Positions 2,885 through 57,422 of a stretch of 64,000 bases of DNA are shown piece after piece. Both the position numbers and the translations under genes were made by a program. How positions within the stretch are numbered: the stretch's first letter is position 1; each line of letters starts with the position of its first letter. Under the pieces are notes generated by a model. That model was not told where the DNA came from, made no database searches, and saw only the letters and a program-made list of their open reading frames with translations. This DNA is from Dehalococcoides sp. JdFR-54 (lineage in GTDB: Bacteria; Chloroflexota; Dehalococcoidia; JdFR-54): contig MTNP01000008.1 of the NCBI GenBank assembly GCA_002011475.1, positions 4,037 to 68,036 on the forward strand, read 5' to 3'.

Positions 2885-4051
2885 GTGAGACAGAAATGTT
2901 TACTCCTCGTGTTATCCCTGGTACTGGTAGGCAGCTTGCTGGCAGTAGCTTGCGTCAGAGAGACCACCGTAACCAAGACCCAAGTCGAAACCCGAACCGT
3001 AACCGAAGCAGCGGCCGAGATCACGGTAACCGAGACGGTGACTGCGGCCCCGGTCACAGTAACTGAAACTGTAAAAGAGACGGTCACTGTCACTGCCACA
3101 GCCCCCCCACAGCCCGTCATTATGAGGGTGACCTCTGATGCGCCGGCAGCCCCCCACCCCAAAGGCGCCGCTATGGATTGGTTCAAGGCAGAGCTGGAGA
3201 AGCGGATCCCGGGGAGTGAGGTGAGGCTCTACCCCGCCGGTTCTCTGTATACCGACCCCGATGCCGTCGAGGCCCTGGCCCTGGGCACCCTGGAGGCATG
3301 CTGGGGGCAGGCGGGCAAGATCTCAGGGTTTGAGCCTAAGGCCTCCATTTTCGCACTGCCGTTTCTCCTCACCAGCAAGGAAGCCGTGTTAGCCCTGCCC
3401 GATAGCGAGCTGGGGAGGTATATCAGCGACCTCATGGAGACCAAGGGCATCAAGACCCTGGGTTACGGATACGTGAGCACCTACCTGGGTATGTGCAGCA
3501 CCTATCGTATCACCACGCCAGATGACCTGAAGGGCAAGAAGTTCAGGGTCTTCGTGAAGTTGACCCAGGAGCCGATGATGGAGGCCCTGGGGTGCTCACC
3601 CACCACCCTGGCCTGGGCCGAGGTGCCCAGCGCCCTGGGCTCCGGGGTGGTCGATGGTGTTTGCACCTCTACCGGTGGCTGGCGCAAGATCAAGGACTTG
3701 GCACCATACTACACCACCCTGGGCTATGGCGGCTTCGGCACAGACCTCTATCCCTTCTGGGTCAGCACCAAGTGGTGGAATACCTTGACCCCCGAGACCC
3801 AGGCTGTCATCGCTCAGACTGCCTACGAGGCCTGCCTCTACGAACAGGAGCTGCAGGACAAGGACGACCAAAGGATGCTGGATGAGTATGGCACCACGGA
3901 TCCCACCAAGCCGGGGATCTACGTCCTCAGCAAAGAGGAGGCCGAGGCCTTCAGGGCCCTCTGGGTGCCAGCGGTGTATGACAAACTTGCAGCGGTCGTG
4001 GGCAAGGACCTGGTTGCCATGGCCGTAGCCTTTGCCGAGCAGTTTAAGTAA
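2885..4051 (+). CDS. dctP: TRAP transporter substrate-binding lipoprotein (DctP family) with signal peptide, lipobox Cys and a Thr/Val-rich (TVTETVT) linker.
   Basis: N-terminal hydrophobic signal ending in ...LAVAC and repetitive TVT linker (DNA ~2965-3110). The mature part has a DctP-family fold. Followed by dctQ and dctM. Confidence 0.8.
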   Translation: MRQKCLLLVLSLVLVGSLLAVACVRETTVTKTQVETRTVTEAAAEITVTETVTAAPVTVTETVKETVTVTATAPPQPVIMRVTSDAPAAPHPKGAAMDWFKAELEKRIPGSEVRLYPAGSLYTDPDAVEALALGTLEACWGQAGKISGFEPKASIFALPFLLTSKEAVLALPDSELGRYISDLMETKGIKTLGYGYVSTYLGMCSTYRITTPDDLKGKKFRVFVKLTQEPMMEALGCSPTTLAWAEVPSALGSGVVDGVCTSTGGWRKIKDLAPYYTTLGYGGFGTDLYPFWVSTKWWNTLTPETQAVIAQTAYEACLYEQELQDKDDQRMLDEYGTTDPTKPGIYVLSKEEAEAFRALWVPAVYDKLAAVVGKDLVAMAVAFAEQFK

Positions 4052-4164: not shown

Positions 4165-4716
4165 ATGTTTATCAGGGTGCTTAAGAGGATAGGCCAGGCG
4201 GCGAATTTCGTAGAGGATCGTCTCATAAGATACCTAGCTGCCTTTGGCATGCTGGCTGTTGTCCTGGTAGCCCTGGTGGAGGTTTTCAGGAGGTATATCT
4301 TCGCCCGTTCCTTCCTCTGGCACTCGGATTTCGTGATCTACTTCATGTTGATGTCCTTCTTCCTCTACCTCGGCTTGGCCTTGAAAGAGGGCGCCCATCT
4401 CAGGGTTACCGTTTTTATACTGCTTTTTCGCAGGTTCTTTGGCGTCACAGCCGAAAGGGTGCTGGAAACCATCGTCAGCTTTGTAGGATTCGTCTACTGC
4501 CTATCTTTTACCTGGTTTGGCGCCAATCTATCCATGAAGACCTACGAAATAGGGAGGGTGACGGAGGGTGCCTACTATCCCTTCTGGGTGATTTTTTCGG
4601 TTCTCACCGCGGGCTTTTTCTTGCTGGGTATCCGCTACGCAGAGCAGTTCTACCTTCACATCAAGGGTCAGGTGAGCAAGGTTTCACCTGGAGGTGAGGA
4701 GCCCAAAGAGTGCTAG
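4165..4716 (+). CDS. dctQ: TRAP transporter small permease (DctQ family).
   Basis: 183 aa with 4 predicted TM segments; position between dctP and dctM; overlaps the dctM start. Confidence 0.8.
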   Translation: MFIRVLKRIGQAANFVEDRLIRYLAAFGMLAVVLVALVEVFRRYIFARSFLWHSDFVIYFMLMSFFLYLGLALKEGAHLRVTVFILLFRRFFGVTAERVLETIVSFVGFVYCLSFTWFGANLSMKTYEIGRVTEGAYYPFWVIFSVLTAGFFLLGIRYAEQFYLHIKGQVSKVSPGGEEPKEC

Positions 4717-6002
4717 CCCTGGTCTTGACCTTCCTCTTCTTCCTAATTATGGGCACTCATCTGGGAATCGCCCTGGCCCTGGGTGGTGTCGCTTGTGTGT
4801 ACCTCGTCACCGGTTATAGCTTCGATTTTGTGATCCAGTCCTTTCTATTCTTCCTGCATAAATACCCCCTTATGGCCGTCCCTTTCTTTATCCTCGCTGG
4901 CTTCCTGATGGAGAGGACCGGGCTCATCCGGCAGATCTTTGACTTCGCCGAGAGTCTTCTCAAGTTCCTGCCCGGAGGGCTGGGGGCGGCTGCTATGGCC
5001 ACCTGCATGGTCTTTGCCGCCATCACCGGCTCCAGTGTGGCCATGGCCTCCGCCATGGCGGTAATCGCCATCCCCGTCATGAGGCAGCGCGGCTATGATG
5101 AAGCCCTTGCCTCGGGGATAGTCTGCTCCGGGGGAACCCTGGGGCTTTTGATCCCTCCCAGCATAACCCTCATCGTCTACGGGGTCATAACCGAGACCTC
5201 CATTGTCCACTTATTCATGGCGGGGATGGTCCCCGGGGTAGTCTTGGGCAGCCTGTTCATCGGGGTGATCATTATTATCGCCATCAGGAGGGGGTTTCGC
5301 CCGGAGCCTACCGAGCTCAAACGCATAGGCACGACCTTCGTCCGAGCTATAGGGGGGCTTCTCTTCCCGGTCCTGGTGTTGGGCGGCCTCTACGGCGGGG
5401 TGTTCACCCCCACCGAGGCCGGGGCCGCCGCCTGTGGGTATGCCCTCCTCTATGGGCTCATCACGGGCAGGCTCAACTTCGCCAAGAAACTGCCCGAAAT
5501 TCTCACCTCTTCGTTGCAGTTAACAACCGTGGTGTTCCTCCTCGTGGGCGGGGCTGGGATCTTCGTTAAGGTCGCCGCCATCGAGTACATACCTCAGCAC
5601 TTCGCTGAGTTCATAATCGGACTGGGTCTTACGCCGCTTACCTTTGTATTTGCCTACATGGTGGTCCTGTTGATCCTGGGCTGCTTTCTCGATGCCATGG
5701 GGATGATCGTCCTTACCGTGCCCATCATTTTCCCGGTGGCCATGACCCTGGGCATCAACCCCCTTCACTTGGGTGTCCTCATCACCATCAATTCCGAGCT
5801 GGGCTGCATCACCCCTCCCGTAGGCCTTAACCTCTACGCGGTGAGCGGCCTCTCCAAGATACCAATAGCCACGGTTCTTCGCGGCTCTCTCCCCTTCTTC
5901 CTGGTGGGATTCGCCTTTTTGATCTTTATGGTCTTTACTCCCACCCTGGCCCTGTGGTTCCCTCACCTCATACATCCCCCCATCGTGTGGGGCGGTGGCT
6001 AG
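4710..6002 (+). CDS. dctM: TRAP transporter large permease (DctM family).
   Basis: 430 aa polytopic membrane protein with DctM-like conserved segments (GIVCSGGTLGLLIPPSI, NLYAVSG). Confidence 0.88.
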   Translation: MLALVLTFLFFLIMGTHLGIALALGGVACVYLVTGYSFDFVIQSFLFFLHKYPLMAVPFFILAGFLMERTGLIRQIFDFAESLLKFLPGGLGAAAMATCMVFAAITGSSVAMASAMAVIAIPVMRQRGYDEALASGIVCSGGTLGLLIPPSITLIVYGVITETSIVHLFMAGMVPGVVLGSLFIGVIIIIAIRRGFRPEPTELKRIGTTFVRAIGGLLFPVLVLGGLYGGVFTPTEAGAAACGYALLYGLITGRLNFAKKLPEILTSSLQLTTVVFLLVGGAGIFVKVAAIEYIPQHFAEFIIGLGLTPLTFVFAYMVVLLILGCFLDAMGMIVLTVPIIFPVAMTLGINPLHLGVLITINSELGCITPPVGLNLYAVSGLSKIPIATVLRGSLPFFLVGFAFLIFMVFTPTLALWFPHLIHPPIVWGGG

Positions 6003-6090
6003 TCTCCGCCCAGCTTGACTGGCTAACCGGGCTGCGGTAAAATGCGCCTCGTAGGCGATTGTTGCCCGATCTAGTTTGAGAGGGGGTAAT

Positions 6091-8537
6091 ATGGTCGAAG
6101 TATTAGTTCCCACAGAGATCGGCCCCGACTATGCGCCGCCAGCCAGCCCCAGGGTGGAGAGGCTGCGAGATAGCTTAGTTGCTATCAGAAGGTACGATAC
6201 CTGTAGCGAGCGGGCTTTACTGGTAACCGAGTCATATAAGGAGACGGAGGGACAGCCCTATATCATCAGGAGGGCTAAGGCCTTCGATAAGCTGCTCCGG
6301 AATATGACCATCTTCATCCTCGATGATGAGCTCATCGTCGGCCACAGGGCCAGCATGCGCAAGGGAGTGCCCTTCTGTCCAGAAATAGATGTGGACTGGA
6401 TAGAGAAGGAGCTGAACAACCGAGAGAGAGACTCCCTGAGCGGGAGCTGTCCGACCTGTATCGAATTTCTGACAGGGTTAAGGAGGACCTGAGAAAGGTC
6501 GTCATCCCCTACTGGAAGGGAAAGACGGTAAGAGACGCCCGCGATGAGCTGCTCGCCAAGGAGATCAGGCTCGCCAAGGAGAACGGCTTGTGGTTGGAAG
6601 GGGTGGATATGGGGGGCCAGGGGCGTATGATCCTGTATCCGCACCGGGTGCTGGAGGTGGGGCTCAAGGGAATCAAGGCTGAGACCCAGAAGAGGCTTGA
6701 CGAGGTGAACATCGCCCACGACCCCGAAGCCTACCGCAAGACCCTCTTCTGGAGAGCAGTGATTATGTACAGCGACGCTGCCATTGCCTTCGCCCATAGG
6801 TACGCCGAGAAGGCCAGGGAACTGGCCAAAAGGGAGTCAGATGTTCAGAGGAAGGCCGATCTGGAGAGGATAGCAGAGGTTTGCCAGTGGGTGCCCGAAA
6901 ATCCGGCCCGAACCTTCCACGAGGCCCTGCAAACCGCATGGTTCGCCTTCCTCCTCGCCGGACTCGATGACGATGCCGACGCCTTTGGCCTGGGCCGGGT
7001 GGACCAGTTCCTGTATCCCTATTATAAGAGGGACCTGGAGGAAGGGCGGCTCACCCAGGAAGAGGCCCAGGAGCTCTTGGATCTCTTCTGGATAAAGTTC
7101 AACGAGGCCCACAAGGCCCGGCCGGAAAGCCTGCCCCCGGGCAAGGACTCCCACGGTAAGATCGGCAAGGCGGGGGATCCCCTCTTCAACCATATGACCA
7201 TCGGCGGCATTACCGCAGATAGACAGGATGCCACCAATGACCTCACCTATATGATCCTCGCCGCCCGCGAGCATATCTTCCCCCTCCCCTATCCCAACCT
7301 TTCCCTCCGGGTTCACCCCCAAACCCCTAAGAGGTTGCTGATGAGAGCCCTTCAGGTCACCGCCAAGTGCGGGGGGTTACCTCAGTATTGCGGGGACAGC
7401 GGCATCATCAAGTCGCTCCTCAGCCGGGGGATATCTCTGGAGGATGCTCGCGACTACACCGCCCATGGCTGCTCCATCTTCAGCGCCCCGGGCCTTTACG
7501 GTAGATGGCATGTCACCTTCCCCAATATCACCAAGCCCCTGGAACTGGCCTTAAACAACGGGGTTGACCGACTCACTGGGGCCCGGATCGGGCTCCCCAC
7601 CGGCGACCCCACCACCTTCAGCTTCGAAGACCTGTTCCATGCCTTCACCAAGCAACTGGACTACATGCTGGAGCTGTCCTCTCAGGAGGTGGCTGTCACT
7701 CAAAAGGTCATGGAGGAGAAATTCCCCCTAGTGTTCACCTCCATCTTCGTGCCCGATTGTCTAGAGAAGGGCAGGGACATAACGGCGGGCGGTGCCCGCT
7801 ATGAGTGGGGCAACGCCATGGCGGGGATGGGAGCCATCACCGCCGGAGACTCCCTGGCGGCTATTAAGAAGCTGGTCTTCGACGAAAAGAGGGTCACCAT
7901 GTCTGAGCTGCTGGAGGCCCTGGACGCCGACTTCCAGGGCAAAGAGGAGCTGCACCAGCTTCTCCTCAACGCTCCCAAATACGGCAACGACGATGATTAC
8001 GCAGACTCCATAGTGAAAAGGGTGTGTGATACCTTTTGTCGGGAGGCCCAGAAATACCCCACCCCCAAGGGGAAGATGGAGCCGGAGTTCCATTCGGTAA
8101 CCCTGTCCGTGGCCTTGGGGTTCCACACCGCCGCTTCCCCGGACGGCAGGAGGGCCTGCAAACCCCTGAACCACGATATGTCGCCCACCGCCGGATGCGA
8201 CCGCAGCGGCCCCTCTGCAATGCTGAAATCGGCCAGCAAGATCGACCAGAGCGCCACCGTTACTAGCTCCTTGCTTATGACTGCCGACCCCAGCATAGTC
8301 TCCCGGGAACGGGATCTGGAGAAGTTCGCCAGTCTGCTGTGGACTTACTTCAATGTCCTAGACGGCACCAATGTGCAGCTCAATTTCCTATCCACGGAAA
8401 CCTTACGAGATGCCCAGCTTCACCCCGAGAAGTACCCCAACCTAGTGGTGCGGGTAGCTGGATTCAACGCCTTGTTTGTGGAGCTAAGCAAGCCTGTTCA
8501 GGATTACATTATCGAAAGGACCTGCCATAGCGTCTAG
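6091..8537 (+). pseudogene. Glycyl-radical enzyme (PFL2 / glycerol-dehydratase / CutC / BSS family) with its reading frame broken near 6425-6440. The N-terminal ~115 aa lie in one frame (6091..6492) and the remainder in another (6405..8537).
   Basis: N-terminal part (CSERALLVTESYKETEGQP...DELIVG) and the long ORF (…ARDYTAHGC…, C-terminal glycyl-radical motif VRVAGFNALFVEL) together align co-linearly with glycerol dehydratase-type GREs. The frame switch lies within/after a GAGAGAGAG tract. Confidence 0.8.
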
Positions 8538-8558
8538 TCTAAACTGAGAACAGCCATT

Positions 8559-8600
8559 GGCCTGGTCAGGAGGCTGGCGCCCTGACCAGGCCAGCATTTT
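8559..8600 (+). terminator. 12-bp perfect stem-loop (GGCCTGGTCAGG ...10 nt... CCTGACCAGGCC) followed by AGCATTTT. Putative partial terminator between the GRE and its activase.
   Basis: Read directly from the sequence. Confidence 0.45.
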
Positions 8601-8627
8601 GAGACATCATCGGGCTATTAAGGCAAG

Positions 8628-9542
8628 ATGAGCAGGGCTGAAAAGGGCCTTATCTCCGAGATTCAGAGGTATAGTATTCATGATGGACCCGGGATAAGAA
8701 CGGTGGTCTTCGTCAAAGGCTGCCCTTTGCGCTGCCAATGGTGTCATAACCCGGAATCACAACGCCCCGTCCCAGAGCTCCTCTACTACCCGACCAAGTG
8801 CTCGAACTTCAGGAAATGCCTCGAGATCTGCCCTCTCGGTGCCCTAACCGAGGCCGGGGGCAAGATACAAATTGACCGCTCCCTGTGCAACAACTGTGGA
8901 GACTGCAGTCAGGCTTGCCCCACCGGCGCTCTGAAGATCGTGGGGGAATGGATGGGTCTCGACCCCTTGCTGGCCAAGATAAAGAAAGACCTGCCCTTTT
9001 ATCAAACTTCCGGGGGTGGGGTGACCATATCAGGGGGTGAGCCGGCATCCCAGCCCGAGTTCGTCGCCCAGCTTTTGAGAGAATGTCAGAGAAACGCTAT
9101 TCACACTGCCATTGAAACGTGTGGTTATGTAAAATGGGAGGTCCTTTCCCACATACTGAACTACACCAACCTGGTCCTCTATGACCTAAAAGTTATGGAC
9201 CCGGAAAAACACAAGGCGTTCACCGGGGTCTCCAACGAGCTGATTGTGCACAATGCACAGCGGTTGGCCCAGCAGAGGATTCCGACCATAATCCGGGTCC
9301 CCGTTGTCCCCGGATATACCGCCTCTAATGAGAATCTGGAGGCCATAGCCCGGTTTGCCGCCACGCTGAACTCCGTAGAGGAGATCCACCTGTTGCCCTA
9401 CCACAGACTAGGCGAAGCCAAATACCAGAAGCTGGACAGAGAGTACAAGTTGGAGGGGATCGCCCCCCTGAGGGAAGAGGAGCTGGAAACCCTAGCTCAC
9501 CTGGTGGAATCCTACGGGTTTAGGGTGCAAATAGGTGGCTAG
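8628..9542 (+). CDS. Glycyl-radical enzyme activating enzyme (radical SAM, with ferredoxin-like 2x[4Fe-4S] insert).
   Basis: GIRTVVFVKGCPLRCQWCHNPES (CxxxCxxC radical-SAM motif) plus CLEICPLGAL and CNNCGDCSQACPTGAL clusters typical of PFL2-type GRE activases. Confidence 0.9.
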   Translation: MSRAEKGLISEIQRYSIHDGPGIRTVVFVKGCPLRCQWCHNPESQRPVPELLYYPTKCSNFRKCLEICPLGALTEAGGKIQIDRSLCNNCGDCSQACPTGALKIVGEWMGLDPLLAKIKKDLPFYQTSGGGVTISGGEPASQPEFVAQLLRECQRNAIHTAIETCGYVKWEVLSHILNYTNLVLYDLKVMDPEKHKAFTGVSNELIVHNAQRLAQQRIPTIIRVPVVPGYTASNENLEAIARFAATLNSVEEIHLLPYHRLGEAKYQKLDREYKLEGIAPLREEELETLAHLVESYGFRVQIGG

Positions 9543-9608
9543 GGGGCCCTATTCCATGAATTTAGAGCGTCCCGAGAAAGGACGAATCGAGAGGAAAAGG
9601 AGACAGCG

Positions 9609-10496
9609 ATGGTACAGCAGCCAGATTTGCTTGTCCAAGAGACGCCCGCCCAGCGCCTAGAGCAGGCTATTGTGGAGTTTGTCCGCTCCAGCCCGGAGAA
9701 CTGCCTCGCCAAAATAGATGGTAGCCCCATCTTTGAGGAACCGTTGGTGGCCTTTGCCGATGGCCACGATCCTCTCTTCCTCCAATACAAGACCATAATC
9801 GGCGACTTCCACCTCACCCCTCGGGAGGTTATGGAGCACCACTTCGGCCCAGAGGCTGCCCAGGTGGGCATCAGCGTCGTCTCCTGGGTGCTGCCCATCG
9901 CCAGGAAGACCCGAATGTCCAATCGCAGAATGAGCCACCGCCCCAGCCAGCGCTGGTCCCATACCCGCTGGTATGGCGAGCATTTCAACGACCAGCTTCG
10001 TCAACATGTGGTGGCTCTGCTGACGAATTGGGGCTATCGGGCGGTAGCTCCAGCCCTGAGCAGCCTCTTCCACATAGTGGAGCACTTCGGCGCCAGGATC
10101 TCTAACTGGTCGGAGAGGCACGTCGCCTATGCAGCCGGTCTGGGCACCTTCAGCCTGAATGACGGCTTTATTACCCCTAAGGGAATTGCCATGAGGTGCG
10201 GCAGCGTGGTCACAGATCTCAGCCTCCCTGCCAGCCCTAGAAACTACTCCTCCCACACTGCCAACTGCCGATTCTATAGGGGCATCTCCTGCCAGGTTTG
10301 TGCTGAGCGTTGCCCCGCCGGTGCTATCACCGCCCAGGGCCATGATAAGACACTATGCAATAGATATATGCGCGAAACCCTCCGCCACCTCCGGGGAGAA
10401 TACGGTGTGGACATCGTCGGGTGCGGTCTGTGCCAGACCAAAGTCCCTTGCGAATCTCGAATCCCGTCTGCTCGAGGGAGCCAGGCCAGCGCCTGA
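9609..10496 (+). CDS. QueG-like (epoxyqueuosine-reductase family) Fe-S protein, truncated paralogue (295 aa).
   Basis: AAGLGTFSLNDGFITPKGIAMRCGSVVTDLSLP core and CQVCAERCPAGAI ferredoxin motif resemble QueG (AAGLGWIGKN...GS.VFLGELLT...CGSCTRCIDACPTGAL). Paralogous to the ORF at 1669. Confidence 0.6.
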   Translation: MVQQPDLLVQETPAQRLEQAIVEFVRSSPENCLAKIDGSPIFEEPLVAFADGHDPLFLQYKTIIGDFHLTPREVMEHHFGPEAAQVGISVVSWVLPIARKTRMSNRRMSHRPSQRWSHTRWYGEHFNDQLRQHVVALLTNWGYRAVAPALSSLFHIVEHFGARISNWSERHVAYAAGLGTFSLNDGFITPKGIAMRCGSVVTDLSLPASPRNYSSHTANCRFYRGISCQVCAERCPAGAITAQGHDKTLCNRYMRETLRHLRGEYGVDIVGCGLCQTKVPCESRIPSARGSQASA

Positions 10497-10503
10497 TGTT
10501 GCC

Positions 10504-11724
10504 TTAGATAACGCCGGCCGCTCTAAGGGCAGCTATCTTCTCCTCACTATAGCCCAGGAGGTGCCGAAAAACCTCGTCGTTGTGCTCACCCAGTCTGGGC
10601 GCGGTGCTCCGCACCCTGCCGGGCGTGAGGGAAAATTTGCCGATGACGTTGGGCATTTTCACCGGGCCGATGTCCGGGTCCTGAACCTCGATGATGTTCT
10701 CCCGCTCCCAGAATAGAGGGTCCTGGAAGATATCGGCCATATTTTGTACCGGCCCCGCCGGGACCCCAGCGTCATCCAGGATATCCACCACCTCTTTCAA
10801 GGTATGCTCCTTGGTCCACTCCTCAACGATGCGGTTGATCTCCTCCCTATTCTCCGCCCGAGCGCTCTGGCTCACGAATCGGGGGTCGGTGGCCAGTTCC
10901 GGCCTGCCCATGGCCTGGCTCAGGCGCCTGAAAACGGGGTCAGTGCTACAGGTGATGGATACCCAGTGGTCGTCCCTGGATTTCCAGATGCCCAGGGGGG
11001 CAGTGCCAGGGAAATCGTTGCCCGTCCTTTCCTGGAGGATGCCCATCTTGTCCCACAGGGCCGGCTGATATTCCTGAAGCCGAAACAGGCCCTCGTAGAC
11101 CGCCAGGTCGATATACTGCCCCTGCCCCCCACCGATGGTATCCCTATAGTAAAGGGCGAACATGATGGACAGGGCGCCGAATATCCCGGTGATGTAGTCG
11201 GCCAGGGATATGGGCGGGTTTAGGGGCGGGCGATCGGGATACCCGGTAATATAGGTCAACCCACTACGTGCCTGACAGGTCATGCCAAAGCCGGCCTTGT
11301 GTCGGTCCGGGCCGGTCTGCCCATATCCAGAGATGCTAAGCATAATGATGCCGGGGTTCACCTCCTTCAGGTCCTCATAGGCAAGGTTCCACTCCGCCAC
11401 CGTGCCCGGGCGGAAGTTCTCGACCACCACATCAGAGATCTTCGCCAGGTCCTTGATCACCCCCTGCCCCTCACGCCTGCGCATATCAACGGTGATGCTT
11501 TTCTTATTGCGGCCGTTCACCGTCCACCACAGGGATTGCCCCTGGTATTTGGGACTCATCCCTCTCAGGCCATCGCCGACCCCCGGCTGCTCCACTTTGA
11601 TAACCTGGGCCCCGAAATCGCCGAGCAGAGAGCAAGCGAAAGGCGCCGCCAAGACATGGCCTATCTCCAGAACCCTTACCTTGGACAAAGGAAGCTCAGT
11701 GGAATTCCTCTCAACCTGCGCCAT
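10504..11724 (-). CDS. Family III (CaiB/BaiF) CoA-transferase.
   Basis: VRVLEIGHVLAAPFACSLLGDFGAQVIKVEQPG N-terminal signature and length ~405 aa. Start chosen at the second ATG (11724), preceded by GGAGGAGGG. Confidence 0.85.
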   Translation of the reverse strand: MAQVERNSTELPLSKVRVLEIGHVLAAPFACSLLGDFGAQVIKVEQPGVGDGLRGMSPKYQGQSLWWTVNGRNKKSITVDMRRREGQGVIKDLAKISDVVVENFRPGTVAEWNLAYEDLKEVNPGIIMLSISGYGQTGPDRHKAGFGMTCQARSGLTYITGYPDRPPLNPPISLADYITGIFGALSIMFALYYRDTIGGGQGQYIDLAVYEGLFRLQEYQPALWDKMGILQERTGNDFPGTAPLGIWKSRDDHWVSITCSTDPVFRRLSQAMGRPELATDPRFVSQSARAENREEINRIVEEWTKEHTLKEVVDILDDAGVPAGPVQNMADIFQDPLFWERENIIEVQDPDIGPVKMPNVIGKFSLTPGRVRSTAPRLGEHNDEVFRHLLGYSEEKIAALRAAGVI

Positions 11725-11975
11725 AGGACATCCCTCCTCCGCCGACTTGGAATGGCTTGTCATCGGCTTTCGGTCTGGGCAAAAGTATAGAGGCTCACCG
11801 CCCCTGCGTCAAGTTTGTGCGTCGTCCTCCTCTATATTGTTGACAATCTTGCCTTCAATGGCTATACTCTTCATTGGCGTGCGTCCTATCCCCTGAATGC
11901 CGTTGGCGAGAAGGAAACCCTGACTGCGCCTTCAAAGGCGGAAAGTTTGTTGCACATCATAGGGAAGGAGGGGAA

Positions 11976-12899
11976 ATGAACAGGTCGAAATCGATCACCA
12001 TCATAGAGGTGGGGCCCCGGGATGGATTCCAGAACCTGGCCGATGAGATTCCCACTGCCGACAAGATCAGGATTGTGGACCTCCTAGCTGATACTGGTCT
12101 GAAGATGATCGAGACTTCATCCTTTGTTCATCCCAAATGGATACCCCAACTGAAGGATGCCGCCGAGGTATTTGCCGGCATCCATAAGAAGCCCGGCGTC
12201 TCCTATAGCGCCTTGATCCCCAATGAGAAGGGCCTGGACAGGGCCATCGAGTGTGGGGTGGGCGAGGTGGTGTTCGTGGTCGCTGCCAGCAATAGCCTGA
12301 ACCGCGCCAATCAGAACATGACCACGGAGGAATCATTGGCCTACCTGGAACCTATTGCCCAAAAGTCGAGACGACACGGCATTCGGGTGCGCGGCATTAT
12401 CGCTGCCTCCTTCGGCTGCTCCTACGAAGGAGAGGTTCCCATCAAGCAGGTCATCGACATCGGAAAGGAGCTGCGGCGGATGGGTGCCTTCGAGATCTCC
12501 CTGGCGGATTCCTTCGGGATGGCCCACCCTCGCCAGGTTAGGCAGGTGGTATCCCGGTTTCTGAGGGAAATAAACGATGTGAGCGTGGGCGTCCATTTCC
12601 ACGATACCAAGGGCACAGGCACGGCCAACGCTTACGCCGCCTTTGAGGCTGGGGTCAATGTCTTCGAGTCCTCCATCGCCGGCCTGGGGGGCTGTCCCTA
12701 TGCCTTAGGCGCCCCCGGAAATGTGGCCACAGAGAGCCTGGTTTACATGTTCCATAAGATGGGCATAGACTCCGGCATAGACCTAGACAAATTGTTGGCC
12801 TGTGCCGAAACGGTTAAGGAGATCGTGGGCTGGCCCCCCAAGACCTGGTCCTCCGAGAGAACCCGCTGGAACTGGAAGGAAGCCTCGGTGCCGGCGTAA
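11976..12899 (+). CDS. HMG-CoA-lyase-like (HMGL family) acyl-CoA lyase; could be a citramalyl-CoA-type lyase.
   Basis: ITIIEVGPRDGFQN (DRE-TIM metallolyase motif), HFHDTKGTG, GLGGCPYA. ATG at 11976 preceded by GGAAGGAGGGG. Confidence 0.8.
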   Translation: MNRSKSITIIEVGPRDGFQNLADEIPTADKIRIVDLLADTGLKMIETSSFVHPKWIPQLKDAAEVFAGIHKKPGVSYSALIPNEKGLDRAIECGVGEVVFVVAASNSLNRANQNMTTEESLAYLEPIAQKSRRHGIRVRGIIAASFGCSYEGEVPIKQVIDIGKELRRMGAFEISLADSFGMAHPRQVRQVVSRFLREINDVSVGVHFHDTKGTGTANAYAAFEAGVNVFESSIAGLGGCPYALGAPGNVATESLVYMFHKMGIDSGIDLDKLLACAETVKEIVGWPPKTWSSERTRWNWKEASVPA

Positions 12900-12931: not shown

Positions 12932-13816
12932 ATGCGAGCCCAAGTGACCCTCACCCCCACTGAGTCGAAGAAACTGATTGCCAAGGCGGTGGCGAGGATG
13001 GACATAGTGAAGCGGGCCTTGGCACAGGGAACAGTAGTTCTGCACCCCAGCAGTAGCACCTACTTCATCGTAGAAGAGATCACCAGGGATAAGCCCAAGA
13101 CCAATACCTGGGTCTGCGGCATCGTAGCCCCCAAGGGTACCTGCGTAGAGATGGGCTCTGCCATAGGCAGTCATTCCATAGTCTCAAAAGTGACCCAGGA
13201 GAGTGCCACTACCAATCCCAAGGCTTTCCGGCATTCCTGGGTCATTAGAGGCGGCGAAATGACCACGGGTATACCCCTCGGCTCCCTCCTGGAGGATTTA
13301 GGCCCTGAGGATGTCTATATAAAGGGCGTGAATGCCCTAGATACAGAGGGCAACGTCGGCGTCCTCATCGGCAATCCCATAGAGGGAGGCACTATCGGAC
13401 AGGTAATGGCTGCCTCCAGGGGAAAGGGATTTAACGTTATCTTCCCAGTGGGCCTGGAGAAGTTGATCCCCATTCCCGTCAAAGAGGCGGCTAAGGAGGC
13501 CCTGAGAACGAGCTATGAGTACGCCATGGGTATAGGCTGTGCCCTATTCCCCTGCCAAGGGATAACGGTGACCGAGCCCAAGGCCATCGAGATCCTCAGC
13601 GGCGCCACGGCCATCCCTATTTCGGCGGGCGGTTTAGGCGGGGCGGAGGGATCGGTAACGCTGGTCATTAGGGGGGATGAAGAGCAAGTTCGTAAGGCCA
13701 TTGATTATGCGGAGCAGTCCAAAGGGGCCAGATTACCCCAGGTGCGCACCTTTAATTGCCATCAGTGCGACGTCTCATTCTGTTACTTCCCGGTGGGCGA
13801 TAAGCCTTGGGCCTGA
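12932..13816 (+). CDS. Conserved hypothetical protein (294 aa) with a Cys-rich C-terminus (CHQCDVSFCYFP); no family recognised.
   Basis: Long ORF with consistent codon usage sitting inside the metabolic gene cluster; two internal Cys-containing loops (GTCVEMG, GIGCALFPCQG). Confidence 0.5.
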   Translation: MRAQVTLTPTESKKLIAKAVARMDIVKRALAQGTVVLHPSSSTYFIVEEITRDKPKTNTWVCGIVAPKGTCVEMGSAIGSHSIVSKVTQESATTNPKAFRHSWVIRGGEMTTGIPLGSLLEDLGPEDVYIKGVNALDTEGNVGVLIGNPIEGGTIGQVMAASRGKGFNVIFPVGLEKLIPIPVKEAAKEALRTSYEYAMGIGCALFPCQGITVTEPKAIEILSGATAIPISAGGLGGAEGSVTLVIRGDEEQVRKAIDYAEQSKGARLPQVRTFNCHQCDVSFCYFPVGDKPWA

Positions 13817-16352: not shown

Positions 16353-17621
16353 ATGGCTAGAATCTATGAGTATCAAGGAAAGCAATTGCTCAAAGCTGTA
16401 GGGATACCTGTTCCTCAGGGGGATGTGGCTGCCACCCCTGAAGAGGTCCGCAGGATTGCAGCAAGCATAGGAAAGCCTGTGGCCATCAAGGCTCAGATAT
16501 GGGTCACGGGGCGTTTCAAGGCGGGCGGCATAAGATTCGCCAGCGACTCTGAAGAGGCGGAGAAAATCGCTCAGGAATTCCTGGGAAGTAGGATCAAGGG
16601 CTTGCTTGTAGAACAGGTGCTCGTTGAAGAGAAACTGGATGTGGATCGTGAGTTCTATGTCGGCGTAATCGTGAACGACTCCTACAAGGTTAGGGCCCCG
16701 GTCTTGGTGTTCTGTAGCGAGGGTGGGGTGGATGTGGAGGAGGTGGCCGCCCGAAATCCGGAACGGGTAGCTACCCTGCCCGTCGATTACCTCAAGGGGG
16801 TGGGGCCCTCGGAGGCGCAAGAGCTAATAGCCAAGATGTCCCTAGAAGCTGCCCTGTCCTCTGAGCTGGTCAAGGTCATCTCCGGCCTCTACCAGGCTTT
16901 CCAGAAGTACGATGCCCGGGTGGCCGAGATCAACCCCCTGGTCTTCACCAAAGACGGCCGTATCTATGCAGCGGATTGCCGGTTCACCCTCGATGATAAC
17001 GCCCTCTTCCGCCACCCCGAGTTCGGCATTAAGGTCCCTCGGGACATGGATCGAGAGCCCACCGAACTCGAGGAGATCGCCTGGCAGATAGAAGAAACCG
17101 ACTACCGGGGAACGGGCTACTTCACTCAGCTAGTCCCCGAGGTCAAAGAGGAGGGCTACGTCGGCTTCCACGGCATAGGCGGGGGGGCAGCCATGCTGGC
17201 GGCTAGCGCCCTGCTAACCCGCGGGCTGAAGATAGCTGACTATGCAGATACCAGCGGCGACCCACCCGCCAGCAAGGTGTATAAGGTGATCAAATGCATC
17301 TTGGCACTGCCCGTCGATGGCTATGTATTGATGGGCTCGGTCCTCGCCAACCAAGAACAATGGCATCATGCCCATGCCATCGTTAAAGCCTTGAGGGAGG
17401 AGCTGAAGGATAGGCCCGGATTCCCCGTGCTGCTCCTCGTCGCCGGGAACAAGGAAAACGAATCCCACCAGATCATCAGAGATGGCCTGAAGGACCTGCC
17501 CATACGCTGGGAACTCTACGGGCGGGATTACATCTACAAGACCGATTTCATAGCCGACAGGGCGGCGGACTTGGTGAAGGCCTATCTGGAAGAGAAACAC
17601 CACAAAGCAGCAGGCAGGTGA
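16353..17621 (+). CDS. Succinyl-CoA-synthetase-like acid--CoA ligase (ADP-forming), beta subunit (ATP-grasp), copy 1.
   Basis: MARIYEYQGKQLLK...GIPVP N-terminus, ATP-grasp and C-terminal CoA-ligase domain, as in SucC / MtkA / CcsA. Confidence 0.8.
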   Translation: MARIYEYQGKQLLKAVGIPVPQGDVAATPEEVRRIAASIGKPVAIKAQIWVTGRFKAGGIRFASDSEEAEKIAQEFLGSRIKGLLVEQVLVEEKLDVDREFYVGVIVNDSYKVRAPVLVFCSEGGVDVEEVAARNPERVATLPVDYLKGVGPSEAQELIAKMSLEAALSSELVKVISGLYQAFQKYDARVAEINPLVFTKDGRIYAADCRFTLDDNALFRHPEFGIKVPRDMDREPTELEEIAWQIEETDYRGTGYFTQLVPEVKEEGYVGFHGIGGGAAMLAASALLTRGLKIADYADTSGDPPASKVYKVIKCILALPVDGYVLMGSVLANQEQWHHAHAIVKALREELKDRPGFPVLLLVAGNKENESHQIIRDGLKDLPIRWELYGRDYIYKTDFIADRAADLVKAYLEEKHHKAAGR

Positions 17622-17627
17622 ATCATC

Positions 17628-17966
17628 ATGGCCCAAGGAAAACTGGAGTTCGAGGCTCGAACCTCCAAGATCACCATCGATTACGACCGGTGTGAGCCGG
17701 CCACAAAGAACACCCCCAACCCCTCCTGCGGCTTCGCCTGTATTAAGGCCGACCGCTGCTACGGCCGAAATGTCCTGAAAATAGAGGGGAATAGACCTGT
17801 GCTTGCCAGTCCGAACCCGGAGGAGATAAGGCGTTTGTGCAACGAGTGTCTGGCCTGCGAATATGACTGCTGGCTCTATGGGGCGGGCTGTATCCACATC
17901 GAGATCCCCTTCCCCGACCTCGACGCCTATAAAGAGAAGGTCAGGACAGGAAAAAGAGGTGAGTAG
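17628..17966 (+). CDS. Small Cys-rich (ferredoxin-like) protein inserted between ligase beta and alpha genes.
   Basis: 112 aa, translationally coupled on both sides, with CNECLACEYDC and upstream C..C..C pattern. Confidence 0.5.
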   Translation: MAQGKLEFEARTSKITIDYDRCEPATKNTPNPSCGFACIKADRCYGRNVLKIEGNRPVLASPNPEEIRRLCNECLACEYDCWLYGAGCIHIEIPFPDLDAYKEKVRTGKRGE

Positions 17967-17968
17967 AG

Positions 17969-18868
17969 ATGGCCATAATCGTTGACAAGACCACCAGAGT
18001 GCTCGTCCAAGGTATCACGGGGCGATTCGGCGAATTCATAACCAGGAACATGCTGGAGGTCGGTACCAATGTAGTGGCCGGGGTGACCCCAGGGCGCGGG
18101 GGTCAGGCGGTATGGGGTATCCCCGTCTACAATACCGTTAGGGAGGCGATAGAAGAGCAGGGGCCCATAGATGCCAGCGTTGTCCTGGTACCTGGCCCAG
18201 ATGCTAAAAAGGCGGTGCTGGAGGCTTTCGACCAAGGGATAAAGACCCTGCTAATGGAGGTGGAGCGGGTCCCCCTGCACGACGCCTTGGAGGTAATAGC
18301 CCACGCCAAGAAAGCCGGCGCCCGATTGATCGGCCCCGGCTCCGCAGGGCTGGTCAGCCCCGGCAAGGCCTCCCTGGGCGTCTTCGGTTCCCCCGAGGAG
18401 TTAGCCCGGGTCGCCTTCATCCCGGGCCGGGTTGGGGTTATCTCGCGAAGCGGTGGGCAAACCTCCACCCTCTCCTGGAACGTCTGCCGCGCCGGGCTGG
18501 GCATAAGCACTGCCATCAACCTGGGCTCCGAGCCGGTCTTGGGCACCACCTTCGCCGAGCTTCTATGCCTGTTTCAAGCCGACGACGAGACCGACGGGGT
18601 AGCCTATTTCGGGGAGATCGGCACAGTCCAAGAAGAGGAGGCAGCGGAGGTTATCAAGGAGGGGAAGTATACCAAGCCGTTGGTAGCCTACGTCGCCGGC
18701 AGAGCCCTCCCCTCGGGGCTGCGCTTCTCCCACGCCAGCGCCATCATTGAGGGCGGCAGGGGCACAGCGGAGAGCAAGGTCAGGGCCCTGAAGGAGGCCG
18801 GAGTATACGTAGCCGATAGGCCGGAGGACATAGGCCCTACCTTAGCGCAGATCCTCAAACGCGACTAA
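17969..18868 (+). CDS. Succinyl-CoA-synthetase-like ligase alpha subunit (CoA-binding), copy 1.
   Basis: VLVQGITGRFG CoA-binding N-terminus and phosphohistidine loop FSHASAII (SucD MGHAGAII). Confidence 0.8.
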   Translation: MAIIVDKTTRVLVQGITGRFGEFITRNMLEVGTNVVAGVTPGRGGQAVWGIPVYNTVREAIEEQGPIDASVVLVPGPDAKKAVLEAFDQGIKTLLMEVERVPLHDALEVIAHAKKAGARLIGPGSAGLVSPGKASLGVFGSPEELARVAFIPGRVGVISRSGGQTSTLSWNVCRAGLGISTAINLGSEPVLGTTFAELLCLFQADDETDGVAYFGEIGTVQEEEAAEVIKEGKYTKPLVAYVAGRALPSGLRFSHASAIIEGGRGTAESKVRALKEAGVYVADRPEDIGPTLAQILKRD

Positions 18869-18881
18869 ATGGGAGATAGCC

Positions 18882-19838
18882 ATGGGCAGTATCCTGAGAA
18901 CAATGCTCTTCATTCCCGCCAATAGCTGGCGGATGATCCTGAGAGCCCGGGATGAGATGGAGGATGCCGTTATCCTGGACCTGGAGGACGCCGTGCCCAT
19001 CGGCGAAAAGGAGACCGCCAGGGTTCTGGCCAGGGATTGCATCCCCCTGCTCAAGGAAAGAGCCATAGACGTTTTCATCCGGGTGAATTCGCTGGCCACC
19101 GGTCTAACCAGGGAAGATTTGAACTACGTAGTAGTCGAGGGAGCGGACGGCATAGTGCTCCCCAAATCGGAATCGAAGCAGGACATCCTCGCCCTAGATG
19201 AGTTCTTGCAGGATGAAGAGAGGAAAAAGGGCTTGGAACCCAACAGCGTCGCTATTATGCCTTTGGTGGAGACTCCCAGGGGGGTTCTGAATGTGAGGGA
19301 CATCGTCTCCGCCAGCCCAAGGGTGATTGCCGTGGGCTTTGGCGCTGGGGATTTCCTCAGGGAGCTGGGGGAGGGGTTCGCCATCACCAGACTAACCCCG
19401 GAGGAGTACTTCCCTATGATTCTCTATGCCCGCTCCAGCATCTCCTTGGCCGCCAGCGCCGCCGGCATTCTGCCTATAGATACCCCCTTCTTCGGGCTGC
19501 TTACCGATACCGAGGGGCTAATCGCTGAGTCCGAGAAGGCCAAGCTTCTGGGATTCAAGGGGAAGATGCTCATTCACCCCCGCCACATCAACCCCGTGAA
19601 TGAGATCTTCTCGCCTTCCGAGGCAGACATCGACTTCGCTAGGCAAATGGTGCAGGCCTACAAGGAAGCCGAGGCCAGGGGGCTGGGGGCAGCCTCCTTC
19701 GGCGGCAGGATGATCGACTATGCCATGCATACCATGGGAATGGACCTCTTGGCCAAAGCCGAAGCCATAGCCGAAAAGAGCCAACGGAGGCTCCGAGTGT
19801 CATCCTCTGCGGGGGCAGCAACTGAGGAGACTTCTTAG
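18882..19838 (+). CDS. CitE-like (HpcH/HpaI family) acyl-CoA lyase, such as malyl-/beta-methylmalyl-/citramalyl-/citryl-CoA lyase.
   Basis: MLFIPAN...AVILDLEDAV N-terminal signature of the citrate lyase beta / malyl-CoA lyase family. Confidence 0.8.
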   Translation: MGSILRTMLFIPANSWRMILRARDEMEDAVILDLEDAVPIGEKETARVLARDCIPLLKERAIDVFIRVNSLATGLTREDLNYVVVEGADGIVLPKSESKQDILALDEFLQDEERKKGLEPNSVAIMPLVETPRGVLNVRDIVSASPRVIAVGFGAGDFLRELGEGFAITRLTPEEYFPMILYARSSISLAASAAGILPIDTPFFGLLTDTEGLIAESEKAKLLGFKGKMLIHPRHINPVNEIFSPSEADIDFARQMVQAYKEAEARGLGAASFGGRMIDYAMHTMGMDLLAKAEAIAEKSQRRLRVSSSAGAATEETS

Positions 19839-19855
19839 CCGGAACTCTGCCAGAA

Positions 19856-20998
19856 ATGGACCTATACGAGCACCAGGCCAAGGCAATCTTCCAGCAATAC
19901 GGGATACCTATCCCCCGAGGGCTGGTGGTCAGGGATGAGTCCTCCCTCCAGGCAGCGTTCGATGCCATCGGCCAAGAGAGCTTCGGAGTGCTCAAGGCCC
20001 AAGTGCTGACCGGGGGGCGGGGCAAGGCGGGGGGCATAAAAGTGGTGGACTCCCTGCCCCAGGCCCTGGAACTGCTCCCCAATATCCTGGGGATGCGGAT
20101 AAAGGAGTTCCCCGTAGATTCGCTCCTGGTGGAAGAAAGACTACACATAAAGAACGAATACTTCATGGGCCTCACCATAGACCCTGAGGCCTCGCTGCCT
20201 GTTCTGCTGCTGAGTCCTCGGGGCGGCATGGATATAGAGGAGGTCGCCAAAGATTACCCCTCGGCCCTGGGCAAATATGTAATACACCCCTCCCGCGGGC
20301 TACCTTCCTTTGCTGTGATGGACTTGGCCAGGGGACTGGGGTTTCCCCACAGGTTATGGGGGGCGCTAATAGACATCGCCGGCAAGCTCTATAAGGCCTT
20401 CTGCCAGGAAGAAGCCACCCTCGCCGAGCTCAACCCCCTGGCGGAGACGACGGGGGACAGCCTGATAGCCGTCGACAGCCGCCTCAGCGTCGATGACAAT
20501 GCCCTGTTCCGCCATCCCGAGCTCAACGAGCTGAAGAAGGGATTCAAGGAAATGTCCCTGAAGGACAAGGGGCTCGACTACATAGACCTGCGGACAGGAG
20601 AGGTGGGCCTGCTCTGCGTCGGCGCCGGCATGACCATGCTCACCATGGACCTGGTGGCACAAGCCGGCGCAAAGGCCCGGTGCTTCCTCGATGTCAGCCA
20701 CGGCATAAGTGCCGAGGGCTTGAGCACCGCCCTGGAACTATTGGCCTCAGAGCCAGGGATCAAGTGTGTCCTGGTAAACATGTTCGGCGGCCTGAGCCGG
20801 ATGGATGAAATAGCCACCTTCATGCTTCAAGCCATCGAGGCTATGGGGGGAAGGTTCCCCAAGCCTATACTGATTCGCCTCCAAGGGACAAACGCCGAGA
20901 TAGGCAGAAGGATGATGATGGAAGCCGGCTACGTCGTCTCTACTGAACTGGAAGAACTGATGGATAATTTCAAAGAACTGCTAAAGGGGACAAAGTGA
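19856..20998 (+). CDS. Succinyl-CoA-synthetase-like ligase beta subunit, copy 2.
   Basis: MDLYEHQAKAIFQQYGIP ATP-grasp N-terminus; 380 aa. Confidence 0.8.
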   Translation: MDLYEHQAKAIFQQYGIPIPRGLVVRDESSLQAAFDAIGQESFGVLKAQVLTGGRGKAGGIKVVDSLPQALELLPNILGMRIKEFPVDSLLVEERLHIKNEYFMGLTIDPEASLPVLLLSPRGGMDIEEVAKDYPSALGKYVIHPSRGLPSFAVMDLARGLGFPHRLWGALIDIAGKLYKAFCQEEATLAELNPLAETTGDSLIAVDSRLSVDDNALFRHPELNELKKGFKEMSLKDKGLDYIDLRTGEVGLLCVGAGMTMLTMDLVAQAGAKARCFLDVSHGISAEGLSTALELLASEPGIKCVLVNMFGGLSRMDEIATFMLQAIEAMGGRFPKPILIRLQGTNAEIGRRMMMEAGYVVSTELEELMDNFKELLKGTK

Positions 20999-21861
20999 GC
21001 ATCTTGGTAGACAAGAATACCCGTCTGGTGGTTCTGGGGATGACGGGAAGGCAAGGCTCCTTCCACACCAGGTTGATGCGGGAGGAGGGCACCAATATAG
21101 TGGCTGGAGTGGTGCCGGGCAAGGGGGGACAACAATTTGAGGGCATACCTATCTATGACACCATCCTACAGGCGAAACTGGCGCAGGATGCCAATGCCTG
21201 CGTCTTCTTCGTTCCTGCCTCGGCTGCTACCCAAGGTATACTGGATGCCATAGACGCCGGCATCGAGGTCGTCAGCGCCATTACCGACGGCATCCCCATG
21301 CACGATATGCTGTTGATCCAGGAGAAGTTGAAGGGAAGTCGCACCCGAGTGATAGGCCCTAACACCTCAGGGCTGATAACGCCGCGGCAGGCCAAGCTGG
21401 GCATAATGCCGTCTATGGCCTACAAGCCCGGGCCTGTGGGCGTCATGGCCAGAAGCGGCTCCCTATCCTATGAGGTGTGCTATGAGCTGAGCAAGGCTGG
21501 CCTGGGCCAAAGCACGGTGGTGGGGATAGGTGGGGACAGGATAGTAGGCACCACCTTTGCTGAGCTGGTGCCTCTATTTGAAGCCGACGCGGAAACCCGA
21601 GCCATCGTTATGGTGGGGGAGATCGGTGGGGTGGATGAGGAAAGGGCCGCCCTGACCATCAAGGAGCACTGCTCCAAACCAGTGGTGGCCATCATCGCCG
21701 GCTCTAGCGCGCCACCGGGCAAGGCCATGGGCCACGCCGGCGCCATCATCACTCAGGGCAAGGGGACCTTCGAGTCCAAAAGGGAGGCGCTTCAAGCAGC
21801 AGGGGTAAAGGTGGTCCGTTATCCCCGAGAGGTTGTCCAGGCCTTGAGGGAGGCATTCTGA
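20995..21861 (+). CDS. Succinyl-CoA-synthetase-like ligase alpha subunit, copy 2.
   Basis: [10 protein letters not shown] CoA-binding motif and canonical MGHAGAII phosphohistidine loop; overlaps beta copy 2 by 4 nt. Confidence 0.82.
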
Positions 21862-28251: not shown

Positions 28252-28575
28252 CTATCTTATCGGCTTCCTCACGAAGACCTGCACACCCACCGAGAAAGGT
28301 ATGCTCTCCCGCAGGTCCTTGCTCAGGGTTATGGACTTCTTCTTATCACCGACCTCCTCCAGCCTCTCCACCTTGAACCTGAGCGTCCTGGGGCCGATCA
28401 CCTCCACCAAGCCCCCCACCTCAACCCCCAGCTCCGCCCGGGATTCAGCATCCAAACGGCACACCCCTTTCCCGAGGTCGGCATCCACATCCTCGATGAG
28501 GGTCAGGATTATCTCTTTGCCGTAGCTAGGCGCGCGATATTTGCTGCCGATCACCTGCTCTGAAGTTTCCATCAT
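28252..28575 (-). CDS. Small hypothetical protein with two AbrB/VAT-N-like cradle-loop barrel half-motifs.
   Basis: 107 aa; CRLDAESRAELGVEVGGLVEV and ITLSKDLRESIPFSVGVQVFV resemble swapped-hairpin barrel motifs; co-directional with tfrAB. Confidence 0.3.
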   Translation of the reverse strand: MMETSEQVIGSKYRAPSYGKEIILTLIEDVDADLGKGVCRLDAESRAELGVEVGGLVEVIGPRTLRFKVERLEEVGDKKKSITLSKDLRESIPFSVGVQVFVRKPIR

Positions 28576-32024: not shown

Positions 32025-32087
32025 GGGGACGACACCTAGAACGCCCTTCGTTGCACGTTTCGATGCGAAGTGGGATTGCCTGGGAAG

Positions 32088-34000: not shown

Positions 34001-34004
34001 CAAG

Positions 34005-34418: not shown

Positions 34419-34447
34419 CCCAGAGACCAAGAGGACAGGCAGAGCTT

Positions 34448-35881: not shown

Positions 35882-35911
35882 AGTATTTCCATCAGTAGAA
35901 GGGAGGGTTCC

Positions 35912-57373: not shown

Positions 57374-57422
57374 TAGGGTGTCCCGATTCAATGCCATCTA
57401 AAAATAGCTGGGAGGTAGGGTC

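Follow-up and report, generated by a model that had tools for sequence, protein, structure and literature searches.

Glycyl-radical enzymes (GREs) catalyze anaerobic reactions that are chemically difficult; thousands of GRE sequences are known, but characterization covers only a few dozen. In the PFL2-type glycerol dehydratase (GDH), Glu435 deprotonates the C1 hydroxyl group and His164 protonates the leaving C2 hydroxyl group (PMC13450708). The HypD variants E436Q and H160Q are both inactive (PMC7077986). The glutamate two residues after the thiyl cysteine (CxE motif, position C+2) is kept in all characterized eliminases and isomerases (PMC13450708, PMC7077986), and HPAD and IAD also keep it; in these two decarboxylases it relays a proton to the cysteine. 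Here we describe a GRE gene located at positions 6091-8537 (plus strand) of a 64,000-nucleotide stretch of contig MTNP01000008.1 from Dehalococcoides sp. JdFR-54, in the following called the window. In this GRE an isoleucine replaces the glutamate and an arginine replaces the histidine, so that both halves of the dehydratase acid-base pair are exchanged. In our assessment, the locus rather probably represents a transporter-GRE-activase cassette in an island for organic-acid catabolism, whose GRE belongs to an uncharacterized, remodeled PFL2-type clade, is likely a recently inactivated copy and is unrelated to the QueG-like gene in its vicinity.

After correction of the reading frame, the 814-residue GRE gives a single Pfam PFL-like match of 683 bits (residues 20-676) followed by a Gly_radical match of 83 bits. 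Its score against the NCBIfam model TIGR01774 (PFL2-3) is 646.8 bits, slightly under the cutoff of 678.2 bits. The equivalog models for HypD, HpsG, HpfG, CutC, IAD, HPAD and PFL all score far below their cutoffs, the highest being HypD with 576 of 1100 bits (IAD, 445 of 1100; HPAD, 331 of 1150). The best PDB matches are propanediol dehydratase (PD, 5I2A) and GDH (1R8W), which align over the full length with 532-544 bits, whereas arylacetate decarboxylase (AAD, 7E7L; 372 bits), MasD (298 bits) and TutD (257 bits) are weaker. The GRE fold is not in doubt. An earlier model-generated reading of the window, made from the letters without database searches (the sequence-only reading), had placed the protein in the PFL2 class, which holds, and the tight clustering with a characterized enzyme that would have spoken against it is not seen.

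The GRE resembles GDH and PD in its PFL2 architecture, its Cys and Gly loops and the ferredoxin insert of its activase, but its active site differs at several positions. In the HMMER alignment with 1R8W, Cys460 lies on GDH Cys433 and Ile462 on GDH Glu435 within the Cys loop HGCSIF; Ile462 also aligns with PD Glu440. The sequence-only reading had thus assigned the Cys loop and the Glu-to-Ile exchange correctly, and no CxE motif occurs elsewhere in the protein. Arg178 occupies the position of GDH His164 in the same alignment and of PD His166 in a fragment alignment, a β1 site at which 114 of 119 close homologues keep the histidine. Furthermore, GDH Asp447 corresponds to Val474, and the canonical strand motif GxxLNxK reads TSSLLMT. 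Among the 119 homologues, 86 columns show a conservation of 95% or more, and the GRE deviates at eight of them (H178R, E256D, G377R, E462I, T708S, G725S, deletion of N728 and Y791F); the homologue median is one, and three homologues likewise deviate at eight. The parts required for radical storage and transfer, as judged from the sequence, are all kept: a complete Gly fingerprint around Gly790, Cys460 as the thiyl residue and an activase that is cognate. RVAGF, which had been regarded as atypical, lies within the published GRE fingerprint RVxG[FWY]x6-8[FL]x4Qx2[IV]x2R, and the whole Gly loop (RVAGF-NALFVE-L-SKPV-Q-DY-I-IE-R, residues 787-810) fits it exactly.

Relatives of this GRE are distant. 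Among 5.8 billion protein clusters, the only one above 50% identity was the product of its own 649-codon open reading frame (ORF), the next best reaching 47%, and a scan of GTDB species genomes gave a best identity of 44% and no close relative. P0241 (48%) and P0242 (46%) were the top matches when 1.84 billion cluster representatives were searched exhaustively with HMMER, and a further search that started from P0241 brought in P0390-P0393. Together with P0061, these sequences make up a clade of the GRE and seven metagenomic cluster representatives at about 44-48% identity, a small, deep-branching and uncharacterized group of PFL2-type GREs. In a neighbor-joining tree of 142 sequences, 81 of 100 bootstraps supported a pairing of the GRE and P0241, and 84 a monophyletic group of the GRE, P0241, P0242 and P0061; the GCVT-type sequences P0012 and P0292 were the next sister group. 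The membership of P0390-P0393 rests on the motifs that they have in common with the clade. A literature search returned nothing relevant on GREs in Dehalococcoidia or on a Glu-less clade of this type.

The clade is defined by a coherent, conserved remodeling of the active site: arginine instead of histidine in β1, no CxE glutamate and an altered strand motif. All eight members carry the β1 arginine (in GQGRM, GLGRV, VGRTM or RGRYL), and all lack the C+2 glutamate (GCSI, GCST or GCQH). Moreover, in all eight the Cys loop is followed by a conserved GLYGR.H or a similar segment with a histidine, the motif [EG][FL]HS occurs around residue 664, and [AST][AS]SLxL stands where GxxLNxK is canonical. 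The phenylalanine after the radical glycine is not clade-wide, P0390-P0393 carrying a tyrosine (RVAGY). The GRE, P0241, P0242 and P0061 all depart from 77 His/Glu-type GREs at four positions where the latter show a conservation of 80% or more. Intact targets for enzymology are P0241 and P0390-P0392 with their activases. On the ENA contig with P0392, the activase is called as a 151-aa fragment (L095 11216-11671), and the SDF, MipA and PqiA genes are split as well. The contig thus looks like a long-read assembly affected by indel errors, and the P0392 sequence needs some caution.

In the window, the GRE gene is not a continuous ORF, as the sequence-only reading had implied by joining two frames without saying so, but consists of 113 and 701 codons in different frames. 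The list of ORFs accordingly contains a 138-codon ORF (6076-6492) and a 649-codon ORF (6588-8537). Frame A starts with ATG at 6091, follows the conserved GRE N-terminus as far as DWIEKELNNRER and continues as nonsense up to a stop at 6490-6492. Frame B picks up with LPERELSDLYRISDRVKEDLRKVVIPYWKGKTV and reads on to the stop at 8535-8537. The switch lies within a (GA)5 dinucleotide run, and removal of one GA unit or addition of one base restores a continuous frame of 814 codons, in which the PFL-like match crosses the corrected junction. As frame B is preceded by a stop at 6327 and contains no ATG, GTG or TTG between this stop and TTG 6588, the gene as written yields at best a protein without the 165 N-terminal residues. 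A programmed frameshift was considered but rejected as the default reading: there is no classical slippery heptamer at (GA)5, and for +2 re-pairing on GAGAGA, although conceivable, there is no support.

NCBI contig DUEO01000008.1, from a Dehalococcoidia metagenome-assembled genome (GCA_011170395.1), carries annotations for the identical split (133 aa and 649 aa). It stems from the same Dehalococcoidia population and matches the window at 100% identity over 20,496 bp. This contig was located via the QueG-like neighbor protein, an exact lookup of the 649-aa ORF product (P0001) having given no match. Since the break recurs in a second assembly, it is not peculiar to one assembler. The 701 stop-free codons downstream and the conservation of the N-terminal segment speak for a frameshift that is either recent or an artefact. 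The likeliest account is a 2-nt insertion or a 1-nt deletion in (GA)5 that has recently inactivated this copy; the gene is thus probably non-functional in this genome.

An alternative interpretation is mere decay: the gene would be a pseudogene in which Glu-to-Ile and His-to-Arg reflect drift under relaxed selection after inactivation and are uninformative on function. The frameshift without an in-frame start before TTG 6588, the eight deviations at otherwise conserved columns, the TIGR01774 score under the cutoff and a nearest relative of merely 47% or so identity would all fit such a history. We nevertheless regard it as improbable, because the seven intact relatives carry the same changes (β1 arginine, no glutamate, ASSLxL) and the substitutions therefore predate the frameshift. 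Derived residues common to seven intact proteins at about 45% identity point to a selected active-site design rather than to drift. Moreover, the 701 codons past the shift are free of stops in a genome of 58% GC, the Gly fingerprint is perfect, and three other homologues equal the deviation count of the GRE.

The CxE glutamate is often taken as a hallmark of PFL2-type GREs, yet about one in two of the sequence-diverse relatives lacks it. Of the 150 nearest representatives of clusters at 50% identity, only about half have the glutamate, and in the others C+2 is taken by T, H, Q, S, D, N, V, L, M or further residues. Similarly, the His/Glu/Tyr triad is absent in 25 of 80 GTDB loci, including types with Arg/Lys and Leu/Val in Chloroflexota and Clostridia. 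A characterized enzyme with a different residue is AAD 7E7L, whose Cys loop aligns as GGCVLHQVPG with leucine at C+2. Thus, absence of the CxE glutamate excludes the GRE from the eliminase, isomerase, HPAD and IAD classes, but uniqueness does not follow from it. The proposal of a new reaction specificity stands to the extent that active-site changes throughout the clade make it plausible; the rarity of Glu-less PFL2-type GREs had been overstated. Glu-less GREs are common among uncharacterized sequences, and the locus alone does not reveal the chemistry.

Among the nearest relatives (P0241-P0389 and L015-L094), loss of the CxE glutamate, loss of the β1 histidine and, often, exchange of the post-Gly tyrosine for phenylalanine tend to co-occur, the combinations RTF, RHF, NTF, RLF and RVY having been seen. 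The Arg/Lys types with Leu/Val include Sedimentibacter hydroxybenzoicus (L075).

The PFL2-type isomerases HplG, YbiW and PflD deliver products to an aldolase or to C-C cleavage, which is akin to the lyase-rich context of the GRE. In contrast to the GRE, all three keep CxE, the glutamate being hydrogen-bonded to a substrate hydroxyl (PMC13450708). The C-S lyases IslA, IseG and HpsG act on anionic substrates imported by TRAP transporters and bind the anion through arginines in β1 and β8, and Gln193 of IslA sits at the β1 site of Arg178 (PMC13450708, PMC8473560). They differ from the GRE in that CxE is kept (Glu470 is essential) and in that Arg189 lies four residues upstream of the Arg178 site. 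The scores of the GRE against the NCBIfam models of C-S lyases are far below cutoff.

In the mechanism that we envisage, the activase would generate the radical on Gly790, which would be passed on to give the Cys460 thiyl radical. The latter would act on a carboxylate imported by the transporter and anchored by Arg178, and the radical intermediate would have to be resolved without Glu-mediated deprotonation of a hydroxyl group, that is, not by a classical 1,2-elimination. The product might then be handed to the neighboring CoA-transferase and C-C lyase enzymes. As the glutamate and its histidine partner are lost together throughout a bootstrap-supported clade, a different reaction specificity is plausible. 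It is possible, and we advance this tentatively, that the clade represents an undescribed GRE reaction class, in which an imported aliphatic (di)carboxylate or amino-acid-derived acid bound by Arg178 undergoes radical C-C or C-X rearrangement or cleavage without the Glu/His pair, yielding a product primed for aldol or Claisen cleavage of the HMGL, CitE or DHDPS type.

Several points weigh against our interpretation of the locus. The neighbor-joining support of 81-84 is moderate, and the clade is known from eight metagenomic cluster representatives, as sequences alone. Both assemblies probably derive from the same reads, and a consensus error at (GA)5 would mean that the gene is intact. Acid-base chemistry could be provided by His473 and His664, which are conserved, so that an absence of acid-base catalysis is not established. 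The context genes are generic, and the CoA-transferase and the HMGL-like lyase are not found beside most clade members. Finally, the activase gene and the QueG-like gene at 9609-10496 lie on the same strand, 66 nt apart and with no terminator-like site predicted between them, and could be co-transcribed in this genome.

The hydrophobic residue at C+2 raises the question of an AAD-type carboxylate decarboxylase. AAD 7E7L is likewise hydrophobic at this position (GCVL), acts on a carboxylate and needs no small subunit; it is the third-ranked match for the Cys-loop segment, the related IAD has an essential arginine, and the TRAP transporter implies a carboxylate substrate for the GRE as well. However, 7E7L scores 372 bits against 532-544 bits for the dehydratases, and it has another Cys-loop motif and belongs to another clade: the motif in the clade of the GRE is GCS[IT] or GCQH, and the GCVL-type sequences L017, L059 and L076 fall outside. 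The GRE is embedded in aliphatic dicarboxylate metabolism with no aromatic-acid genes nearby, and IAD and HPAD keep CxE. We therefore consider a decarboxylase of this type unlikely.

The sequence-only reading had further proposed the QueG-like reductase as a partner of the GRE. The 9609-10496 product belongs to the reductive-dehalogenase/QueG superfamily, though distantly. It scores 27 bits against the QueG equivalog TIGR00276 (cutoff 200) in a match confined to residues 168-284, and matches the QueG structure 5D08 with an E value of 0.034. Its AGLG...N...IT...G core aligns with PceA residues 323-396 and with QueG, a weak superfamily match, and eight cysteines at 220-281 form two cluster-like motifs. 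Its description as a truncated QueG paralogue is therefore correct, though weakly, as to kinship, but not as to truncation, since its family (6867 matches, mostly Chloroflexota/Dehalococcoidia where named) is about 285-310 aa long. An identical NCBI entry bears the name 'epoxyqueuosine reductase [Dehalococcoidia bacterium]'. The second paralogue, at 1669-2469, is a clearer match and was recognized correctly; the two are 32% identical over 113 residues. Both have the AGLG...GxN core and the two CxxCxxxCP-like Fe-S motifs of QueG and reductive dehalogenases, but they reach 27-51 bits against cutoffs of 160-200 and, with lengths of about 295 and 266 aa, are without the C-terminal domain of QueG.

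If the GRE and this protein were a two-enzyme system, a cobalamin/Fe-S reductase would handle the substrate or product of the GRE. The tight linkage to the activase gene and the location of the second paralogue 420 nt upstream of the TRAP genes would suit such an arrangement, which is, however, very improbable in view of its absence elsewhere. No QueG-like gene was present at seven other clade loci (L010-L014, L095 and L096, representing five distinct gene contexts). A tblastn search with both paralogues against 87 GRE loci (1.33 Mb) returned one weak match (27% over 173 aa), whereas the activase, used for comparison, matched in 73 of them. In addition, the QueG-like family is very large and Chloroflexota-wide, and the three closest homologues of the 9609-10496 protein (60-64% identity) have no GRE nearby. 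They reside in unrelated housekeeping contexts, flanked by genes for a 3-hydroxyacyl-CoA dehydrogenase and a Dak2/FakA-like protein (L004), by lgt and the OMP-decarboxylase gene pyrF, or by UPF0020 methyltransferase and Dak genes; EF-P is also among these neighbors. The lack of synteny with GREs thus leaves the partner hypothesis unsupported, and judging by gene neighborhoods the QueG-like protein appears to be a bystander. With a frameshifted gene and without this partnership, the practical value of the locus itself is limited.

The family III CoA-transferase downstream recalls BbsEF, which acts after BSS, an enzyme with a hydrophobic pocket for the hydrocarbon and with Arg508 binding fumarate. 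A hydroalkylase resembling the X-succinate synthases, adding a substrate radical to fumarate or working in reverse with an arginine binding the dicarboxylate, would agree with this gene, with the fumarase-like genes nearby and with mapped active-site positions that are hydrophobic apart from one arginine (Ile462, Val474, Arg178), but is hardly probable given the weak similarity to MasD and TutD, the lack of genes for small Fe-S subunits or of small Cys-rich ORFs flanking the GRE, and a TRAP transporter that points to an anionic substrate rather than a hydrocarbon.

Table 1. Positions of the GRE gene, its key codons and neighboring features in the window.
Feature	Position	Strand	Remarks
GRE 5' segment, frame A	6091..6429	+	Residues 1-113 of the reconstructed protein; well conserved vs homologues
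Dinucleotide run (GA)5, GAGAGAGAGA	6422..6431	+	Holds the frame switch
GRE 3' segment, frame B	6432..8537	+	Residues 114-814 plus stop; first in-frame start TTG 6588
Codon of Arg178	6624-6626	+	
Codon of Cys460	7470-7472	+	
Codon of Ile462	7476-7478	+	
Codon of Gly790	8460-8462	+	
Codon of Phe791	8463-8465	+	
GRE-activating radical-SAM enzyme	8628..9542	+	CPLRCQWC, residues 32-39 (CX3CX2C); two-cluster ferredoxin insert
295-aa Fe-S protein, distant reductive-dehalogenase/QueG superfamily member	9609..10496	+	TIGR02486 1.5e-6; TIGR00276 2e-6
Second QueG-like paralogue, 266 aa	1669-2469		QueG 7.6e-14; PDB 5D6S 2.7e-11
Sigma-70-like promoter match, TTGACT-17-TAAAAT	6015..6043	+	48 nt 5' of GRE start; 10/12 consensus, pattern match only
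GC-rich hairpin followed by ATTTT	8558..8592	+	Between GRE stop and activase start
dctP (TRAP), directly 5' of GRE	2885-4051	+	Pfam 4e-45
dctQ (TRAP), directly 5' of GRE	4165-4716	+	Pfam 7e-20
dctM (TRAP), directly 5' of GRE	4710-6002	+	Pfam 1e-93
Family III CoA-transferase	10504-11763	-	Pfam CoA_transf_3 4e-120; convergent
HMG-CoA-lyase-like C-C lyase	11874-12899	+	Pfam HMGL-like 2e-51; NCBIfam PRK05692 362 bits

The activase gene follows the GRE gene after a gap of 90 nt. As the sequence-only reading had stated, its product is a ferredoxin-domain activase: it scores 373 bits against TIGR02494 (cutoff 174) and matches Pfam Radical_SAM, Fer4_12 and Fer4. The gap contains a GC-rich hairpin whose stem is a perfect 12-bp inverted repeat (GGCCTGGTCAGG...CCTGACCAGGCC), and the predicted RNA fold of 8541-8612 has a free energy of -31.5 kcal/mol. 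This structure may act as an attenuator or terminator that lowers expression of the activase relative to the GRE. Besides the promoter-like site in front of the GRE gene (Table 1), another is found at 2739-2767, ahead of the TRAP genes.

Dicarboxylate and CoA-ester enzymes surround the GRE, so that the earlier description of fumarate/mesaconate surroundings was a fair one. The nearest structures of the DctP binding protein are of the C4-dicarboxylate type (4OVS, 9DSY; E about 1e-28), a pointer that is only loose and too unspecific for naming the substrate. The N-terminal part of DctP (2885-3150) consists of a membrane anchor followed by a long, repetitive linker rich in Thr, Val and Glu (TVTKTQVETRTVTEAAAEITVTETVTAAPVTVTETVKETVTVTATAPP), which may serve as a tether in a cell without an outer membrane. 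On the 3' side, the CoA-transferase and the HMGL-like lyase are candidates for downstream steps. Farther 3' are genes for a two-subunit Fe-S hydro-lyase of the fumarase, tartrate dehydratase or mesaconase family and a methylmalonyl-CoA-mutase-like protein, and acetyl-CoA hydrolase/transferases are also found farther along the window.

Carboxylate transporters and C-C lyases recur in the vicinity of related GREs. The neighbors of P0241 are a CitE-like lyase, an activase, TRAP genes and a sigma54-PAS regulator, and those of the Glu-containing sister P0002 are TRAP genes and an HMGL-like lyase. DctM and an HMGL-like lyase accompany L015, and TAXI-TRAP and a DHDPS-family aldolase accompany L017, an RLF type. 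P0392 lies next to an SDF transporter and a sigma54-PAS regulator, P0390 also next to a sigma54-PAS regulator, and P0061 next to glycolate-oxidase-like FAD/CCG genes. An imported organic anion combined with a downstream C-C lyase is the theme common to the GRE relatives.

Further genes in the window extend the organic-acid island. Between the HMGL-like and fumarase-like genes lies an ORF of 294 aa (12932-13816), which is also annotated in the NCBI metagenome-assembled genome; it has a Cys-rich C-terminal tail (CHQCDVSFCYFP) and gave no match in Pfam or NCBIfam. From 16353 to 21861, a CitE-like lyase gene (18882-19838) lies between two tandem beta/alpha pairs resembling succinyl-CoA synthetase. 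Scores of the first pair stay under the SucCD cutoffs, and a citrate-binding domain is matched in its beta subunit as well. Together the genes could encode a synthetase for citryl-, malyl- or citramalyl-CoA and the corresponding lyase. At 28572-31887 on the minus strand, the gene for a fumarate-reductase/succinate-dehydrogenase flavoprotein adjoins that for an Fe-S subunit (2Fe-2S, 4Fe-4S dicluster, CCG), and the pair resembles a soluble enzyme of the thiol:fumarate-reductase type.

A module for a B12 carbon-skeleton mutase seems to be present in duplicated form at 32070-38839. It comprises a small ORF (32070-32543), two paralogous genes for the E chain of glutamate (methylaspartate) mutase (32540-34000 and 34448-35881) and, 3' of these, a PrpD/MmgE-like gene (35912-37291) and a MutL-type reactivase gene (37433-38839). 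A LarA-like gene is located at 48984-50435 and a second TRAP system at 51514-54193. Two adjacent HGD-D genes at 56231-58712, similar to the D component of 2-hydroxyglutaryl-CoA dehydratase, would be a further radical dehydratase system in the same island.

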